This document shows positions 1-59,399 of a DNA stretch of 64,000 nucleotides, piece after piece; the first letter of the stretch is position 1, and the number at the start of each line of letters is the position of its first letter. The stretch lies in the IMG/VR virus record IMGVR_UViG_2648501839_000008; one strand, written 5' to 3'. The notes below the pieces were generated by a model, which was not told the origin of the DNA, did no database searches, and was given only the letters and a program-made list of their open reading frames with translations. This DNA is from a virus (Duplodnaviria; Heunggongvirae; Uroviricota; Caudoviricetes). A program made the translations under genes and the position numbers.

Positions 1-128
1 GAAAGAGTTGCGGCTGGCGATTGCCAGCCGCCTTTCTCGTTCCATCCTGGAACTGTGTCTTACCGACACATTGTCATCCTGACGCCGATAAGATACATGA
101 TTTAAAATGATAGGTAAACACTTACTTA

Positions 129-719
129 CTATTTGTTATAAACAAAACCAATATCTTTCTTGTGAGGCATATCTGCTGCTGAAAAAGCTGCGATCTTCGC
201 GAGTCGATCACATATTTCATTTTCACGATGCCCGGCGTGACCTTTAACCCACTTCCAGCGAACATTATGTCGACTTGCGGCCTCATCCAGACGCTTCCAC
301 AGATCAACATTCTTTACCGGTTTTTTGTCAGAAGTCATCCATCCATTGCGTTTCCACCATTTCATCCACTGTGTCATGCCGTTTTTCAGATACTGGCTAT
401 CAGAGTGCAAAATAACGTTGCATGGATATTTCAAACGCTCCAGCCCGATAAGTGCCCCCATCATCTCCATGCGGTTATTGGTGGTGCTATGAAAACCATC
501 TGAGAACTCGCGTTCCTCACCACGATACTGGAGAACGATACCGTAACCGCCCTGGCCACCCGGATTTTTAAGGCAAGAGCCATCACTAAAGATTTTCACG
601 GTTTTAAGCTGGGGATTGAACTCTACGACAGGCGTTGTGGGATTGGTGCGGGGAGAATTTTTGTTTTTGTCTTTTTTGCGAGTTTTTGCTTGCGATCGGG
701 CTGGTGTCTTCGTCGTCAT
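129..719 (-). CDS. rnhA: Ribonuclease H (RNase HI-like)
   Basis: Translation aligns by eye along RNase HI ([20 protein letters not shown]...[17 protein letters not shown]). Start placed at internal ATG 719-717 (MTTKT) because AGGAG lies 6 nt upstream; the ORF-track start at 803 adds 28 unsupported residues. Confidence 0.85.
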
Positions 720-1300
720 ATAAACTCCTGAATCAAGCGCCGCGCCGATTTTTCCTCGCGCGTGCGCACACGCGTGCGTGTTAATAATTATTAAAATAAA
801 CAAATTACTTCCCAGAACAGGTTTTTATAAACCTGAACTGAACGAACGAAGTGAGTGAAGTTCACCTCGAACGAAGTGAGAGGTTGTCTTTTCAGGTAAT
901 ACTCTCCCAGGGAGGTGAGTATAAAATTCCTCACCAACCTGGTCGTTTCATAACCTGAAAAGCTATGGTCTAAGTCTACTGCCAGCTTAGACTTGGGAAG
1001 TTATGGATGACAGCACCCCAGAACCGAGATCTTCCCACACTTTATGAAGGGGAGTACTGGATTCAACCTCTCGAAACACCCCAGACTCGACAATCATAAA
1101 GTGACCCTTGTCTCTGCTCACTTTGGTTCCCCCTTCCCCGACACCTATACGGCACCGGTTCTACGCTGGTAGTGAGCTTTTTTAAACCTGACGCCAGTGA
1201 CGCTTACCCCCACCCATCAGGTCGAGCCTCCAGTCTACGACTGGAAACTATCAGATCTTAGCACTTACAATTCACTTTATGAACAGTTTGTACTTATCTA

Positions 1301-1531
1301 TCATTGTGATTGATTATTTTCTCGACCATGTAGTTGAACATTCAAGGCAAACACCTCATTGATCAACTCACCTAAAAGCTGTTCAACAAGTTCGCGATGC
1401 TCGCCAAGATGCAAGCACTTAATTGCCCACTCGTACAAGTTGAAAGCCTGCTCACGATCTTTCATCATTTCACGAGCCTGGGCCAGAAAATCGCTCTCTA
1501 CGAGCGCAACGACATTAGTCGGGTATGACAT
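1301..1531 (-). CDS. Hypothetical small protein
   Basis: ORF 1301..1555; preferred start ATG 1531-1529 is preceded by CCACTTTAAGGAAACCAAC, a variant of the conserved initiation box seen at other genes here. Confidence 0.45.
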   Translation of the reverse strand: MSYPTNVVALVESDFLAQAREMMKDREQAFNLYEWAIKCLHLGEHRELVEQLLGELINEVFALNVQLHGRENNQSQ

Positions 1532-1637
1532 GTTGGTTTCCTTAAAGTGGTTCATAAAATCGATTTTAAAGCGTCTGGGAAGGGGGTCTAGTGGATTCTG
1601 TAGTGATGTTCAGGTCTGGGAGTCTCTGATACAAAAC

Positions 1638-1696
1638 AGCCTGCTTCCGTATATTAATAATTAATATGTAGTTATTTATATATACAGAAGCAGGCT
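1638..1696. terminator. Long hairpin (17-bp arms around an AT-rich loop) downstream of the dam-like gene; near-identical copy at 48172-48230
   Basis: Inverted repeat AGCCTGCTTCCGTATAT ... ATATACAGAAGCAGGCT read directly from sequence. Confidence 0.5.
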
Positions 1697-1717
1697 AATT
1701 ACAGACGCCAGAGCAAA

Positions 1718-2311
1718 CTAAGCAGCCTTCTTTGATGGTCTTTTTTTCCTGATCACATTCGCAGGATCATACCCTCCCAGACTTTTCATGACGTCCAAAG
1801 GGATCTTGCTTATAGAGTGCCCAGCGTCCTGACAAAACCCTCGAAAAACAACGAGCATACTGCCACCGGGGTTGATGTTTACTTCTACCTGACCCAAATT
1901 GACGTCAGGCTCGACAAACGCAACGCGGCCACCAGACAGAATAATCGTCTCATTCGCATACTCTGTTGCACGCTCATACCACTTTGTATCGAGGGATTGA
2001 GGAATTAGCATCACTGTTGTAACTCCGCGAGCCTGCTCACGTATAGCCGCATCAATCCAGGGGGAGATTTTGGAGTAGGGTGGATTGAGGAAGGCAATTG
2101 TACCTGGCTGCCCCCATTCAGATTTCAAAGCATCGCGCTCAACGCCTATGAAAATAGGCAGCTTTGCATTGTCCTTGTTGCAGGCAACGTCAACATCAAA
2201 TGTCACTCCAAGATAACGTTGAATGGCAGAAAACAGCCAATCAGGTGTTCTCCAGAGGTCACGAAGAGAGTTGTCGCGCTTTCGCTGTTTGATTTTTTCG
2301 GCTGCAATCAT
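1718..2311 (-). CDS. dam: DNA N6-adenine methyltransferase (phage Dam-like)
   Basis: WRTPDWLF and NPPYS motifs typical of phage N6-adenine MTases; no restriction endonuclease partner in the window. Confidence 0.8.
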   Translation of the reverse strand: MIAAEKIKQRKRDNSLRDLWRTPDWLFSAIQRYLGVTFDVDVACNKDNAKLPIFIGVERDALKSEWGQPGTIAFLNPPYSKISPWIDAAIREQARGVTTVMLIPQSLDTKWYERATEYANETIILSGGRVAFVEPDVNLGQVEVNINPGGSMLVVFRGFCQDAGHSISKIPLDVMKSLGGYDPANVIRKKRPSKKAA

Positions 2312-2493
2312 CTTCTTTCTCGATAGGTAAGTGATTACCTATTTTTGCATTTGATTTTATGTATGGCAATCAAATAAAACGCGCCAGAAATGCGAACAAG
2401 AAGCTCTCTGGCGCGTTTTTGTGGTGCTGGGTATGGGTTAGCTTACCCAGCACTATAAAGCTCTCTATGGGCTTTATTTTCAGTAGGGGAACG

Positions 2494-3303
2494 TCATCCA
2501 ATAGTGTACTCCGCGACAAACTTCTTAACGATCGGTGATTCTTCGTTCAATGTTAGATTTCCACCGTCTCTAACAGCAATTCCTGTAGCTGGAAATACAG
2601 CCATCATTTGCCCAGCCTGAGTTGACGCAGTGTTAAGCGGATACGGTTTTTCTGGATTGCTCATTAAAGCAATCTTAATACTATTACTTGTAGCCTTCTT
2701 TTCTGTGAGAAGGTGTCTCATGGAAATTACCGTGTAAACACTAATATCTGGACCTCCGCTAAACCAATTAAGAAGGTTTAATATCTTATCCTTTGCTTTG
2801 ACAGGCGCGTTTTCGTAAGCGTCTAAGAAAATATCTTTTTCTAAGCCTGCTTTATTGAAAAACAAATCATCTTTATCACTTAAAGTAAAACGAGGACCTC
2901 TTGCAGTACGAGCTTTTTTATTTGTATTGCTATCATTTGACTGTTGAACTTTTAATTCATCATTAACCTCAACACACTCTTCAACCTCAATAAACCCCAA
3001 TTGTTCTGGCTCGTTTTCGGCAGATTCAACACTTTCAGCCTTAATTACGTTTATAGGCTCATGAGCTAACTCCAACTCATTTAAAGCGGAGCTGAAATCA
3101 CCTGCTTTTTCTTCATTGAACAGTTCTTCGGCAACATCATCAGAACTCATGGCTACGCCAGCATCGAGGCCGAGAAGCAGATCGTCAATATCATCAGTAT
3201 TTTCAACCTGTGCAGCTTTTTTTACTGGTTCATCAAGTGATTGCAACATGGCTGTCAGCTCATCCAGATCATCATTTGTCATTACATTTTCAACCGAACT
3301 CAT
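2494..3303 (-). CDS. Hypothetical protein with highly acidic N-terminal half
   Basis: 269-aa ORF; residues 1-120 are strongly D/E-rich. No recognisable catalytic motif. Confidence 0.6.
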   Translation of the reverse strand: MSSVENVMTNDDLDELTAMLQSLDEPVKKAAQVENTDDIDDLLLGLDAGVAMSSDDVAEELFNEEKAGDFSSALNELELAHEPINVIKAESVESAENEPEQLGFIEVEECVEVNDELKVQQSNDSNTNKKARTARGPRFTLSDKDDLFFNKAGLEKDIFLDAYENAPVKAKDKILNLLNWFSGGPDISVYTVISMRHLLTEKKATSNSIKIALMSNPEKPYPLNTASTQAGQMMAVFPATGIAVRDGGNLTLNEESPIVKKFVAEYTIG

Positions 3304-3463
3304 GTAAGTCTCCTTCTGTTTAGTTGCATTTGCGTTTCGATGGCTACATTTTGACTAAACCTATCAGGCGGAAAAGTATTAAATACAGGCAGGAAATGAT
3401 TGAAAGGCGACTGTTCTTTAAAAGAAAGCCTGCTTCAAACTCTCTTTAAAGCAGGCTTTTGTT

Positions 3464-4021
3464 TTACACAATTTCAGAGGGTAATTTAAAAAATCCGTAT
3501 TTATTACGTGCCTTAAAGAAGCATTGCATCATTAAGTTTGTGTCATATAAGGCACTATGTGCTTTGGCATGATCGTATATAAAGCCAAGAGAGAAGGCCA
3601 ATTCTTCAAGGCGAGGACGTTTACCGTCTTCTGTGGCCCACAATCCCGATAACATAGTATCTATAACGGGAACGTCTGGCAGTCTTACTCCATACCCTGA
3701 AAACTCGTGTCGAATAAATGGTATATCAAACGCTTCGCCGTTATGAGCAATCCACGCACTACATGCCCCCATATAAGCGCCAATTTCGCTGGCATGATTT
3801 GACAACAAAGGTTCAGCTGCGAGCTGTTCTAATGAAATGCCATGAACGGCTTGAGCTTTCGGATCTATGTTTCTGCGAGGGTTAAAACGCATCTCCAGAC
3901 TATCAATATGTCTCTGTGTCTCCAGTTCATAGCGGGTAATTGCGATTTCAATAATTTTATGACCAGCAAGGAAATCCAGTCCCGTAGACTCGATATCGAT
4001 GCCTGCAACAATCGTTGTCAT
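3464..4021 (-). CDS. DEDDh-family 3'-5' exonuclease (DnaQ-like)
   Basis: Exo I GIDIESTG, Exo II HNGEAFDIPF and Exo III HSALYDT motifs in the correct order. Confidence 0.8.
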   Translation of the reverse strand: MTTIVAGIDIESTGLDFLAGHKIIEIAITRYELETQRHIDSLEMRFNPRRNIDPKAQAVHGISLEQLAAEPLLSNHASEIGAYMGACSAWIAHNGEAFDIPFIRHEFSGYGVRLPDVPVIDTMLSGLWATEDGKRPRLEELAFSLGFIYDHAKAHSALYDTNLMMQCFFKARNKYGFFKLPSEIV

Positions 4022-21986: not shown

Positions 21987-22053
21987 GTGTTTTCCTATGT
22001 GGTTGTTATGCGAAAATAATAAGTAAGTACTTATATATTTTCAAGAGATAAAA

Positions 22054-25454: not shown

Positions 25455-25571
25455 GTGTTTCTCCTTGTTGTGATTTGGCCGATGGCGCTATGCGCGTTGG
25501 GCTTTCGTTCATTCGTGGCTCTTTCGAGCTGTTAAATGATAGATCAGTACTTACTTATTATCTATCAAAAA

Positions 25572-27303: not shown

Positions 27304-30300
27304 TCATTTGCTAATAGTCTCCGCTACCTCTGCAAGAATTGCTTCCAGCTTTTCGCCTTCCTCTAGGCGAAAGTACAAAATATTCGGGTTAAATCCGTAG
27401 AAAACAGTCACATCCAGCTCCGGCAGATACTCTTTGCGTCCAACCAGGTCGGATGGTTTGCTCTTGTTGTTGAAGAGCGATGTCGCCCGGCTGCCACACG
27501 TCAGCACATAGGTTGGACGCACCAGATTGATCTCTTCACGCATAAAGTCGGTGAACTGGCCGATCTCGTCTTTGGTGTAGTCTTTTTCTTTGTCTTTAAC
27601 CTTCTTGCAAACGCCTGTGACATAGAGATCGCCCATGCGTAAATCTCCAGCCGTCAATAGCTTGGCCTTAAAATCGTCGTATCCGTTCTCCATAAAGTAA
27701 CCGGTTCGAGCATCATTGCCGTTCGCATTGTCCAGAATGATCATGATTTTCGGCTTAATACCAATGCTGGGGCGGATTAGTTCATCACCTAAGCCCATTT
27801 CAGCCGCCATCCGTGTCATGAGCACGTTAATCTCAGCCGAACGTTTGGGGTTCATCTCAAACGGACGTGAGGCTTTAACTGCGTCTATGACAAGGTTTCC
27901 CATCAATTCAGCCTGGTCGCGTAGGCGCTCTGGATCAGTTGCTGGCAGACTACCTGGCTCGATGGATGCAAACGCCCCTACTTTTTGCAGCGATTCGCGC
28001 ACTCGACTATTACAGGCACGTTTCTCGACAGCTTCTTCGAATTGCGCCAGTGACTCGAATTTGCCGCCAACTTTTTCTCGCGCTCTCATGATGGCTTGGC
28101 AGCCATTCTCAGAACACCCCTTCACAGCAGAGAAGGGCGCATACAGCACCTGGCTGCCATCTTCAAGCGTGCGGATCTCGATTCGGTTGGATGACACGTT
28201 AACGTCTGGTGGCAATACGCGAATACCATAGGTCAGCGCATCTTTAACCAGCCCCTGGTGTTTATCTTCGCCAAGAATAGTGAGAGCAGCAGCGAAAAAC
28301 TCTGCGGGATAATGAGTTTTCAACCACATAGATTGATAACTGATCAAGGAGTAAGCAACAGAGTGTGATTTGTTGAACTGGTAGGCACCATTTTTTTCGA
28401 ATGCGGTCCAGATCTCCTTCGCTTTCATCTCTGATAGCCCTGGGTGTGACGCTGTCACGCGTACTGCGTTTATAGGTAGTTTTGCGCCGTGTTCAAGCGC
28501 CTCTTCGACAGTTTTCAGTGTTCCGTCTTCGCATTTAAAATGTTCCGCACGGTGAATGCGCTGTGTAGTGCCATCTTCCAGCTCAACGTCTATCCAGCCA
28601 GCTTGAGCCTGAACGATGAACTTCTCACCCATGCTCTTCATTTTCTCCATGTCTTTTTTGCCGATCGCTTTACGAACGCCGTCAGCTTCAGCCATTGTGA
28701 AGCCCGCAAGCAATCGAGTCGCGTTCATCGTCTGTTCCTGATAAAGAATCACGCCATTTGTTTCTGCGGTAAGTTCATCAAGAACGGGGTGTAATGATTC
28801 CGGCGTCATAAAGCCTTTGGCGACAGAAACATAATCATCCAACATGCCTGACTGAATTGGCCCCGGCCGGAAGAGCGCAGTCGTAGCAACGACCGTTTTA
28901 AAGCTCATTGGCTCAATTCCACCACCTAAATCTTTAAGCAGCTTGCGCATTGGGCCTGATTCAAGCTGGAAAACACCTTGAGTGTACCCAGCAGCAAAAC
29001 CATCCAGCACCTTGCGATCTTCAAGAGAAATGGCATCAAGATTGATATCCTCACCTGTGTTCTCTTTAATGTAGCGTTTTGCACTATCGAGCAAATCGAG
29101 AGTCGCCAGGCCAAGTACGTCCAGCTTAATTAGGCCCATAGCCTCGCAGTAACGCTTGTCAAATGCGATACAACGCGCGTCACCACGTCGTTCAACCGGT
29201 GTTCGTTCTGTCAGAGGAACACCTGCTACGATCATCCCTGCCGCATGTCTACCATAGCCACGCATAAGGCTTTGTAACTTGCAGGCTGCATTGAATGCAT
29301 CAGGATATTTTGTCGCGTATTTGTCGAGGCTTGCCAGTTGTTCGCGCAGCTCTTCCAATGGAAGGCTATCATCCTCGACGTTCTTCAGTTCTTTTGATAC
29401 CGCCATATCTGCGGACTCCACACCATAAATACGAGCGGTGTCACGTAGTGCAGAGGCCGCGCCCAGGTAGGTGAAGTTCGGAATGCCTGCAACGTAATCT
29501 TCGCCGTAGCGTTCATTCAGATACTCGATCACCTCATGGCGACGTGCCTGGCTGAAGTCCAAGTCCGCATCTGGCAAGTCGAGACGCTCAGGGTTGATGA
29601 AACGTTCAAACAGAAGACCGTGACGGATAGGGTCGACGTTGGTTATGCCTATGCACCATGCCACCAAAGAGCCAGCGGAGGAACCACGACCAGGCCCGAC
29701 AGGAATGCCAGTTTCACGGCTGTGATTCATCAGATCGCGTACCATCAGGAAGTAACCACAAAATCCCAGGCGAGTAAGCGTGTCCATTTCGTACTTAAGT
29801 CGCTCAACATAAACCCTGTTCTCAGAAGCCGGTGGTGTGTAGCCAAACTCTTTTGTGGTAAGACGTTTACGCAGCCCAGCAACGGCCAGTTTCATCAGCG
29901 TTGCAGGCTCGTCGTCTGCCATCTTTGGCAGTGCTGGTGGCAATTCATGCCAGCGCCATGTGCAGGCATCGATAATGGTATCCTGCGTTGTTGAGGCCAT
30001 TGCAGCTGTTACCGGCACATCCATGCGAACGGAGAAGGCTTTCAGCGCCTCAAGGAGATGGCGGCGACCATTGACGGCGTTATCTCGCTGGTGGGGGATA
30101 CGCAGACGATGCGGCTGGTCGATTTTGATGTTGTTCGTAACCATGTGCGCAATGTCTTTAATGTCTGCATCGTCGATCGATTCGTAATAAGCGGGATAGA
30201 ACGCTACTGGCTCTATTTTCAGTGCGCTGGCGACTTTCATCGCCCGGACGTTAATCTGGTCGTAGAATGGGGTAGGGTGCGGATAAACCACACTATAGAA

Positions 30301-38574: not shown

Positions 38575-38660
38575 TGGCGGAGAGTAATGGAATCGAACCA
38601 TCATCGTTTGCACAATGGGACGGTTTTCAAGACCGCTTGAGCACCATGCTCCCTACTCTC
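38575..38660 (-). tRNA. tRNA-Ser (anticodon UGA), type II with long variable arm
   Basis: Reverse complement folds by eye: acceptor GGAGAGT/ACTCTCC, anticodon loop CUUGAAA, T-loop GGTTCGATTCC, 3' GCCA. Confidence 0.6.
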
Positions 38661-38981
38661 CAGCTATTGTGATGGTCGGTGCTGAACTCCGACACAGGGT
38701 TGTAGCAAGCCCCGCAAAGCGCGCACTACTGTAGTTGCGGCACATCAGCCTGTGCATTCATCACAATGGTAAGATCACTACCTTTCGACCAGTCATTGTG
38801 CACATGAACGACGATTAACCGTAATGATATTATCGTTGTGTTGTGAAGCCAGATGCTTATCTTCTGGTTGCTTCAAAGAGCTGCACTTCCTCACAACGGT
38901 AAGAGCACTGGTCTGACTCTATCGATTTACGGCCTTGTGGGTCAGTATCGCCGATTCGCCCAATGCTCTTACCTGTTGTGT

Positions 38982-39057
38982 TGGTGCCGGTTAACGGACT
39001 TGAACCGCTGGCCATTCGCTTACAAAACGACTGCTCTACCAACTGAGCTAAACCGGC
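38982..39057 (-). tRNA. tRNA-Thr (anticodon UGU), tentative
   Basis: Reverse complement GCCGGTTTAGCTCAGTTGGTAGAGC...GGTTCAAGTCC...AACCGGCACCA; anticodon loop UUUGUAA, with one mismatch in the anticodon stem. Confidence 0.55.
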
Positions 39058-39061
39058 AATT

Positions 39062-39148
39062 TGGTGGGGAGTGATGGAGTCGAACCACCCGAGTCGCCAT
39101 GACAGTAGATTTACAGTCTACACCGCTACCTCTACGGACTAACTCCCC
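39062..39148 (-). tRNA. tRNA-Tyr (anticodon GUA), type II
   Basis: Reverse complement GGGGAGT...GTAGACTGTAAATCTAC...GGTTCGACTCC...ACTCCCCACCA. Confidence 0.6.
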
Positions 39149-39153
39149 TAAAT

Positions 39154-39228
39154 TGGCGATGGTGGGTGGATTCGAACCACCGACCAGTTGGTTAACAGCC
39201 AACTGCTCTACCGCTGAGCTACACCATC
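39154..39228 (-). tRNA. tRNA-Asn (anticodon GUU)
   Basis: Reverse complement GATGGTGTAGCTCAGCGGTAGAGC..GTTGGCTGTTAACCAAC..GGTTCGAATCC..CACCATCGCCA. Confidence 0.65.
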
Positions 39229-59306: not shown

Positions 59307-59399
59307 GTTGAATATGCTCCTTGATTTGGTGGGCTATCCTTGCCCACCATTAAGTAAGTACATACTTATTTTTACCGATATAAATATTTTTTTCTACCA

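Follow-up and report, generated by a model that had tools for sequence, protein, structure and literature searches.

A probable gene for a large structured noncoding RNA in SSU5/pHCM2-type phage-plasmids

Structured RNAs that exceed 400 nucleotides (nt), are well supported and have no known function are rare, and those that have been characterised are often ribozymes or unusual RNA-protein machines. GOLLD and ROOL are unusually large, many-helix, covariation-supported noncoding RNAs (ncRNAs) of mobile elements whose function is unknown, and in these respects resemble the RNA reported here. Messenger RNAs (mRNAs) of the hok family are plasmid-borne, highly structured and constitutive, and are ~400 nt long. 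The locus that we compare with these systems lies in a 64,000-nt stretch of viral DNA (IMG/VR record IMGVR_UViG_2648501839_000008), hereafter the window. Positions ~797-1250 of its minus strand very probably constitute a stand-alone gene for an ncRNA of ~450 nt that is specific to SSU5/pHCM2-type phage-plasmids. As far as sequence comparison can tell, the RNA is a new family without a detectable relative among described families, and is akin to the large orphan structured RNAs of mobile elements.

The first kilobases of the window match the Escherichia phages CMS-2020a, PhiR41_1 and Cyrano at 98-99%, and Salmonella phage SSU5 and Klebsiella phage-plasmids at 80-84%. By these matches, the source DNA is an SSU5/pHCM2-like phage-plasmid. 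An earlier note on the window had marked 803-1300 as a highly structured region without an open reading frame (ORF) of 60 amino acids (aa) or more, and as a candidate structured ncRNA or cis-acting site. The longest ORFs there are indeed of 48 aa (791-937, minus), 44 aa (987-1121, minus) and 42 aa (1044-1172, plus). The repeats that had drawn attention to the region are also present: nested inverted repeats CTTTTCAGGTAAT/ATAACCTGAAAAG (888-900 / 950-962) enclosing CCAGGGAGGTGAG/CTCACCAACCTGG (907-919 / 930-942), the inverted repeat GTCTAAG/CTTAGAC, which a repeat search places at 968-974 / 986-992, and the direct repeat CGAACGAAGTGAG at 843-855 and 868-880. Additional inverted-repeat arms were recovered, such as CACTTTATGA/TCATAAAGTG (1038-1047 / 1094-1103).

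When positions 100-2400 of the window are aligned with nine relatives, identity is 0.86-1.0 across ~810-1225, compared with ~0.75 in the flanking coding regions and ~0.5 in 1225-1300. No other sequence in the neighbourhood is therefore as constrained as this noncoding block, which really extends over ~797-1250 and, at that extent, is 90-100% identical among relatives. Measured in this way, purifying selection acts more strongly on the RNA element than on the protein genes beside it. The interval first proposed needs correction: the conserved element runs over ~797-1250, whereas 1251-1300 is poorly conserved and holds a putative promoter and the remnant of a palindrome.

Copies of the RNA fall into two subgroups. 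The main subgroup, 1a, is represented by 55 distinct copies from IMG/VR and PLSDB, all of which are at least 88.7% identical. The divergent subgroup 1b was recovered through a search with the neighbouring small protein. It scores 160-173 bits in nhmmer, versus ~560 for 1a, and is also found on ~109-kb plasmids of a plant-associated Cronobacter and a soil Enterobacter.

Both strands of the window copy fold better than dinucleotide shuffles (z = -3.11 for plus, z = -3.79 for minus). Compensatory changes preserve this structure across relatives, so it is no accident of a single copy. With RNAalifold, the minus strand reaches -139 kcal/mol and the plus strand -102. Predicted minus-strand pairs include 787 G-U cells versus 15 A-C cells, and this asymmetry indicates that pairing is maintained only in the minus-strand RNA, which has the same orientation as the surrounding genes. 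In the 1a alignment, 99.7% of cells are paired and 12 pairs have changed on both sides. The mixed alignment of 1a plus 1b (A7; 122 pairs) has 94.9% of cells paired, with double-sided change in 36 of the 122 pairs, versus 23.5 +/- 2.6 in shuffles. Its covariation score is 0.363, compared with 0.220 in shuffles and 0.05-0.10 with slid partners; none of 500 shuffles reaches either observed value. On this comparative evidence, the RNA folds into at least 15 helices, most of them backed by compensatory substitutions.

A small protein or hok-like type I toxin, such as the 44-aa CYRAN_81 annotated inside the element in phage-plasmid Cyrano, is hardly credible as the product of this locus. The idea draws on the similar size, structure and plasmid carriage of hok-family mRNAs and on the 36-44-aa ORF annotated in Cyrano. 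However, a frameshift or truncation disrupts that ORF in the copies from Klebsiella and AnCo3, and 1b lacks it and has another ORF. No ORF is common to 1a and 1b, and none is hydrophobic. All three codon positions are equally conserved, and loops carry frame-breaking indels of 1-2 nt among copies.

A published study re-analysed RNA sequencing (RNA-seq) of E. coli LF82 carrying Cyrano (GSE154648; Misson et al. 2023, PMC9928086). The Cyrano copy of the element is 97% identical to the window copy, and CYRAN_81, called a "hypothetical protein" on the strand of the flanking genes, lies inside it (OV696614.1 78657-78791; L169:2709-2843). That study listed CYRAN_81 among lysogen-expressed "morons", at 12 times local background (PMC9928086). 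Expression was given as log2(fpkm+5), where fpkm is fragments per kilobase per million, with two replicates in each of five conditions (PMC9928086 S1 table). CYRAN_81 reached 6.8/6.9 in LB stationary phase (BLB), 9.3/9.0 in B1, 6.9/6.9 in B6, 9.0/8.2 in MB1 and 10.35/10.3 after 6 h in macrophages (MB6), a range of 6.8-10.35 (PMC9928086). The flanking CYRAN_80 (the small gene) and CYRAN_82 (rnhA) ranged over 3.1-5.8 and 2.6-5.0, respectively (PMC9928086). CYRAN_81 is thus expressed 12-40 times above both flanking genes in lysogens, with a profile similar to that of the repressor and integrase genes, and the gene downstream is at background. In the plasmid state, the transcript signal forms a discrete peak that does not extend beyond the element.

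Two of the published "morons", CYRAN_81 and CYRAN_40, look like annotation artefacts. CYRAN_40 (39144-39356; L312:145-357) lies opposite tRNA-Thr and tRNA-Ser genes, which it overlaps, and reads from tRNAs probably account for its high count. The window contains no homologue of CYRAN_43, the Cyrano "moron" with the highest expression.

These data also bear on whether the locus acts purely as DNA, for example as an origin, a packaging or partition site or a protein-binding array that is transcribed only incidentally. Very high sequence conservation and the direct and inverted repeats would suit such a site. However, pairing is kept by compensatory changes over the whole 450 nt with the G-U excess described above, the transcript peak is discrete, and the 13-nt direct repeat occurs nowhere else in the window. 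A purely DNA-level role is therefore very improbable. Of the two options first put forward, the structured RNA is upheld by conservation, minus-strand covariation and G-U asymmetry, lack of ORFs and the RNA-seq peak. The earlier note would have given up its candidate had the region been absent or unconserved in relatives, untranscribed, or occupied by a conserved small ORF; the comparative alignment, with its compensatory changes, and the published coverage, with its peak over the element, contradict all of these.

The predicted parts of the RNA gene are as follows.

1286-1297, no strand assigned: degenerate copy ATAAGTACAAAC of the palindrome GTAAGTACTTAC, just past the small gene's stop codon, overlapping the -35 region or lying upstream of it
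1255-1283, minus strand: putative sigma-70 promoter, with a -35-like TTCATA (1283-1278), a 17-nt spacer, TG (1263-1262) and a -10 hexamer TAAGAT (1260-1255)
797-1250, minus strand: ncRNA of ~450 nt, supported by the conservation block, by strand and structure, and by the transcript peak over the homologous CYRAN_81 interval
1229-1245, minus strand: 5'-terminal hairpin TCCAGTC GTA GACTGGA, hypervariable in sequence with the stem kept
903-1226, minus strand: multi-helix core, comprising a long hairpin ACCUGAUGGGUGG...UCAGGU, a branched 5' domain and then four or five more helices, with covariation on A7
within 903-1226, minus strand: further core helices CACUUUAUGA...UCAUAAAGUG; UGGGAAG/CUUCCCA enclosing GGGGUG/CAUCC; CUAAGCUGG...CUUAG; and CCAGG-GGUGAG...CUCACC-CCUGG
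1064-1072 with 878-886, minus strand: candidate pseudoknot between loop GAGAGGUUG and CAACCUCUC, with 9-nt perfect complementarity, paired in the single-sequence minimum-free-energy fold
865-883, minus strand: 3'-domain hairpin 1, CCUC[UCACUUCGUUC]GAGG, with one direct-repeat copy in the loop; stem and loop are invariant in 1a
834-864, minus strand: 3'-domain hairpin 2, UGAACU[UCACUCACUUCGUUCGUUC]AGUUCA, with the second direct-repeat copy in the loop
793-835, minus strand: presumed 3'-end region, with a terminal hairpin CAGGUUUAUAAAAACCUG, conserved UUCUGGGAAGUAA and a T-rich tract UUUGUUUAUUUU

Judging from the promoter position and the limit of conservation, the 5' end would lie at an estimated 1248-1251 and the 3' end at ~805-793. 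In the putative promoter, TG stands one base upstream of the -10 hexamer. T1260, A1259, A1256 and T1255, together with G1264 and T1263, are invariant in all 55 copies amid an otherwise variable stretch. Subgroup 1b and the unrelated type-2 RNA described below both have TAnnAT at an equal distance from their 5' hairpin. A simple promoter scan did not list the site at 1255-1283, and the promoter is therefore inferred rather than shown.

SSU5 and pHCM2 have a perfect palindrome copy, GGTAAGTACTTACC, at the same place, where 1b carries another palindrome, AAATAGnCATTTnGCTATTT. The core GTAAGTACTTAC, whose extended form is TA(A/G)GTAAGTACTTAC(C/T)TAT(C/T)ATT, occurs 18 times in the window versus 1.5 expected, and 11 times in SSU5 55-103 kb versus 0.6. 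Copies lie at 114-125, 2327-2338, 22023-22034, 25543-25554, 39981-39996, 59354-59365 and ~12 more positions, and also in the SSU5 locus (L164). Those examined adjoin gene ends or starts, often directly past stop codons, and a -10-like TATCAT abuts the palindrome. The palindrome may serve as an operator, as an activator-dependent promoter element or as a weak terminator in both directions.

At least seven unrelated sequences occupy the 5' hairpin among the 55 copies, and all form the stem. Double-sided change affects 4 of its 7 pairs, and its G-U variants are compatible only with the minus strand. A hairpin likewise occupies this position in 1b and in the type-2 RNA.

The two hairpins of the 3' domain are preserved in 1b with other stems. 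Hairpin 1 (helix 16) reads CCUC[UCACUCCGUUC]GAGG, and hairpin 2 (helix 17) reads GAAACC[UCACAUUCGUUC]GGUUUC, with double-sided change in 3 of 6 stem pairs and 100% of cells paired. Both loops keep UCACnUYCGUUC in 1b though the stems differ. The terminal hairpin (helix 19) also shows compensatory variants. Conservation stops at GGGAAGUAA (~805), and the T-rich tract comes next.

The GAGAGGUUG/CAACCUCUC pseudoknot is plausible on the folding model. Both segments are invariant in 1a and 1b, and this lack of variation puts the pairing beyond covariation testing. A second pairing, GAAGGGG/CCCCUUC, is not claimed as a pseudoknot because it is lost in 1b.

A search of PLSDB with positions 780-1310 found the RNA on 687 plasmids of Klebsiella, Escherichia, Enterobacter, Salmonella, Citrobacter and Cronobacter, including S. 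Typhi pHCM2, and 677 of these plasmids are typed as non-mobilizable. The neighbouring small gene is on 728 PLSDB plasmids, compared with 687 with the RNA, and the type-2 RNA adds 30. Among 5426 complete E. coli genomes, 232 carry the element, as a single copy and on plasmids of ~105-120 kb in all but two cases. RefSeq annotation was absent under all 25 of the matches sampled from these 232 genomes. A pattern scan of metagenomes returned SSU5-like contigs and four matches that were treated as chance: three closely related bog contigs with the pattern beside a gene start codon, and one match inside a 442-aa ORF. A relative from Moellerella has neither a type-1 nor a type-2 RNA at the locus.

In 30 Klebsiella plasmids of a sister lineage, the sequence between the small gene and rnhA is ~480 nt long and cannot be aligned with the RNA described so far (type 1, comprising 1a and 1b).

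L161:3226-3760, L162:3226-3780 and 28 other Klebsiella plasmids: type-2 RNA

The layout is as in type 1, with a palindrome, a -10 element and a 5' hairpin, and 15 pairs have changed on both sides among six sequences. Comparison of the two types with nhmmer gave nothing in either direction, and the covariance model of the type-1 central domain reached a best E of 2.7 in type-2 loci. We treat the RNAs as unrelated because neither method detects a relationship. The type-2 RNA is a candidate for a new RNA family in its own right. That unrelated RNAs of similar size occupy one locus in sister lineages suggests that the RNA cassette is lineage-specific and can be exchanged.

Searches for known classes were negative. 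With Rfam 15 (4227 covariance models), positions 1-4000 of the window gave no match in 797-1250 at E <= 1, and the scan of type-2 loci gave no relevant match. ARAGORN found no tRNA or tmRNA in the region; the only tRNAs in the window form a four-gene cluster (Ser-TGA, Thr-TGT, Tyr-GTA, Asn-GTT) at 38575-39228 on the minus strand. In the literature on SSU5/pHCM2 and RNA we found no description of this RNA. A ToxI-like tandem array of ~30-40-nt repeats just ahead of an endoribonuclease toxin gene does not describe the locus, which has two copies of a 13-nt repeat 25 nt apart and a variable downstream gene. In the rest of the window and in 47.7 kb of PhiR41_1, no stretch complementary to the RNA or its loops exceeds 12 nt, which is chance level.

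In all, the locus has several marks of an independent bacterial ncRNA gene, namely a conserved -10 promoter element, a discrete transcript, the lack of coding capacity and a structure kept by compensatory change; its ends are estimates, and the terminator scan made no call there.

The ORF-free gap sits between the small gene for a 76-aa protein and rnhA, and the minus strand carries every gene around it. The neighbouring genes are listed in the direction of transcription.

3464-4021, minus strand: 3'-5' exonuclease gene
2494-3303, minus strand: gene for a 269-aa protein
1718-2311, minus strand: Dam-family methylase gene
1301-1531, minus strand: gene for the 76-aa protein (the small gene), with its stop codon at 1303-1301
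129-719, minus strand: RNase HI gene (rnhA)

The RNA locus lies within a DNA-metabolism module. The order methylase, 76-aa gene, RNA is constant across relatives, and the next gene downstream is variable. In most type-1a and type-2 copies, rnhA directly follows the RNA. A DUF262 gene replaces it in an S. Tennessee plasmid; in subgroup 1b the RNA is followed by a gene for a 207-aa protein of unknown function or directly by one for a 103-aa protein; and in one type-2 plasmid the next gene is on the opposite strand. Further downstream are genes for a ~165-aa and a ~60-aa protein, a TerB/TciA-like gene and a DUF3927/TciB-like gene. In SSU5, the antirepressor gene (ant) lies ~1.8 kb downstream of the RNA. 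The 76-aa protein has no Pfam family and a PHROG match only of unknown function. AlphaFold predicts a helical bundle for it (predicted local distance difference test score, pLDDT, 72.5), and this model has no fold match in the PDB at E < 1.

This arrangement raises the possibility that the RNA is a cis-acting leader or attenuator. The RNA would be a constitutive 5' leader that normally terminates and that, on a signal, allows read-through into the early genes downstream (rnhA or its replacements, the genes for the ~165-aa and ~60-aa proteins, the TerB/TciA-like and DUF3927/TciB-like genes and, in SSU5, ant). By analogy, it would resemble the immI operon of phage P1, in which c4 RNA precedes icd-ant. 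The RNA is directly upstream of these genes in the same orientation, and high RNA-seq over the RNA with background over the next genes is what efficient attenuation would produce. The 3' domain also offers alternative pairings, because GAGG can pair with the upstream CCUC or with downstream CUUC/CCUC, and GGUUU of 1b can pair either way. The presence of ant ~1.8 kb downstream in SSU5 would likewise fit. However, the first downstream gene differs among relatives and in one case has the opposite orientation, a conserved 400-nt sensor would be far bigger than known leaders, the downstream genes stay at background even with a 10-fold rise of the RNA, and the terminator scan found no canonical terminator. 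We consider a leader unlikely.

Another candidate role is that of a replication primer or R-loop origin similar to ColE1 RNA II. Near its 3' end, the structured transcript, rich in G-tracts, would form a persistent hybrid with DNA, from which the adjacent RNase HI would make the primer that starts lytic or plasmid replication. The RNA resembles RNA II in size (~450 nt) and elaborate fold and contains G-runs (GGGUGGGGG, GGGGAAGGGGGAA), and beyond its 3' end come an AT-rich tract and an alternating GC inverted repeat. In addition, rnhA comes immediately downstream in most type-1a and type-2 copies, and the locus lies in the DNA-metabolism module and is expressed in the plasmid state. Several observations make such a primer improbable, though. 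The RNA is kept where rnhA does not follow it (1b, S. Tennessee and one type-2 plasmid), the G-runs are in the 5' half rather than at the 3' end, and the plasmids are typed as Rep/iteron replicons (IncFIB and others). A consensus scan found no RNA I-like antisense promoter facing the 5' part; the sole nearby plus-strand promoter-like site (1242-1271) points away. No shift in GC skew was seen at the element, which is at the edge of the window.

Some further observations concern rnhA and its surroundings. The phage RNase HI has a Lys/Arg-rich N-terminal extension of ~40 residues, with the Pfam RNase_H domain starting at residue 40. Its start codons are annotated differently among relatives, giving products of ~500-765 nt. 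A protein search of genome contigs with RNase HI found chromosomal rnhA genes only. The GC-rich alternating purine-pyrimidine inverted repeat ACACGCACGCGTGTGCGCACGCGCG lies at 734-786, between the 3' end of the RNA and the ribosome-binding site of rnhA. It is kept in type-1a relatives and gives a spurious Rfam match to a hepatitis C virus (HCV) stem-loop; it could be an rnhA-leader hairpin or a tract prone to form Z-DNA. Just downstream of rnhA, at 39-84 on the minus strand, are two hairpins with GGA loops (UCAGGAUGA, UUCCAGGAUGGAA) and a weak CsrB-like Rfam match (16.8 bits, E = 0.11). They may be a CsrA-binding leader of the next gene. Elsewhere, in the closest annotated relative, PhiR41_1, positions 28059-30092 (L310:13760-15793) hold a full-length methionyl-tRNA synthetase gene and a UmuD-like gene, which are probably outside the window.

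The reading that we tentatively favour is that the product is a folded RNA that acts in trans in the lysogen, where two identical hairpin loops would be shown to a partner and would aid maintenance or immunity of the plasmid-prophage. Transcription would start at the conserved TGn-TAAGAT promoter, a stem-loop would protect the 5' end, and the RNA would end at the T-rich tract after GGGAAGUAA, such that little transcription enters the next gene. The RNA would form a compactly folded scaffold in which two neighbouring hairpins of the 3' domain each expose the same 11-nt loop (UCACnUYCGUUC). These loops would be recognised by a partner, for which the likeliest candidate is a dimeric protein of phage or host that the RNA would bind or sequester; a nucleic acid is less likely. 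Through this interaction, the RNA would help to maintain the plasmid-prophage state or its immunity. Presentation of the loops is favoured because they are the only single-stranded sequence on covarying stems that is kept in both subgroups. Action in trans is favoured because the element contains no antisense target, the RNA is retained whatever gene follows, and the neighbours are silent while the RNA is expressed.

Several observations weigh against this account. No partner of the RNA was identified, and the loops have no complementary site of at least 13 nt in the window or the rest of a sister genome. The lack of such a site disfavours antisense action within the element and does not thereby identify a protein partner. 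The 76-aa protein encoded next to the RNA has no informative family or fold match and is not co-expressed with the RNA in lysogens. Most double-sided changes separate only the two clades 1a and 1b, and there are therefore few independent covariation events. Two mutually exclusive pairings for CUUUUCAGG each fit the data. For this copy, the terminator scan calls no canonical intrinsic terminator, and Klebsiella copies have a weak T-tract. The RNA-seq value comes from a 135-nt interval of a strand-resolved library for which strand-specific counting is not stated in PMC9928086.

A broader possibility, which we hold still more tentatively, is that the RNA belongs to an undescribed class of large structured RNA, possibly ribonucleoprotein or catalytic. 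It might then be a core, lineage-specific determinant of the plasmid-prophage lifestyle, serving lysogeny maintenance, immunity or incompatibility, or defence, and forming an exchangeable cassette with the non-homologous RNA of the same size in the sister lineage.

Several features make the RNA notable: its size and conservation, its occurrence in clinically important Enterobacteriaceae and the fact that transcript data exist. It is carried on ~110-kb phage-plasmids of heavily studied bacteria, namely E. coli, Klebsiella, Enterobacter and Salmonella including S. Typhi pHCM2, and nevertheless is unannotated in RefSeq and mis-annotated as a hypothetical-protein "moron" in one published genome. 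SSU5/pHCM2-type elements are known to carry resistance genes (PMC9600943). The RNA is the most conserved feature of its neighbourhood and is made in the lysogen, and therefore gives experiments a direct way into the question of how these elements stay in the plasmid state or leave it. Its addition to RNA family databases would stop spurious ORF calls at the locus.

Comparison with described systems sets the RNA apart from each of them. It shares with hok-family mRNAs plasmid carriage, a length of ~400 nt, heavy structure and constitutive transcription, but it lacks a conserved peptide ORF, and no antisense partner is evident. It does not match the Rfam models of GOLLD and ROOL, is smaller than both, and occurs in phage-plasmids of Enterobacteriaceae, away from tRNA genes. 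ColE1 RNA II is likewise a plasmid-borne transcript of several hundred nt that is constitutive in the plasmid state and whose folding is functionally essential, and it too has a link to RNase H, which here takes the form of gene adjacency in most copies. However, the present locus has no RNA I-like antisense promoter, the RNase H adjacency is not conserved, the replicons are of Rep type, and no similarity in sequence or to the model was found.

The immunity RNAs c4 of P1 and CI of P4 differ in being ~77 nt long with loops complementary to their own operon, whereas the RNA here is ~450 nt and has no complementary site in the window or a sister genome above chance level. It also has no Rfam match in a library that should include the c4 model. 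Yet these RNAs, too, are lysogen-made ncRNAs of phage-plasmids or satellites located inside an early or immunity operon, and in SSU5 the RNA is upstream of an antirepressor gene, as is c4 in P1. Finally, the presence of a different RNA at the same place in the sister lineage recalls type-specific immunity determinants.

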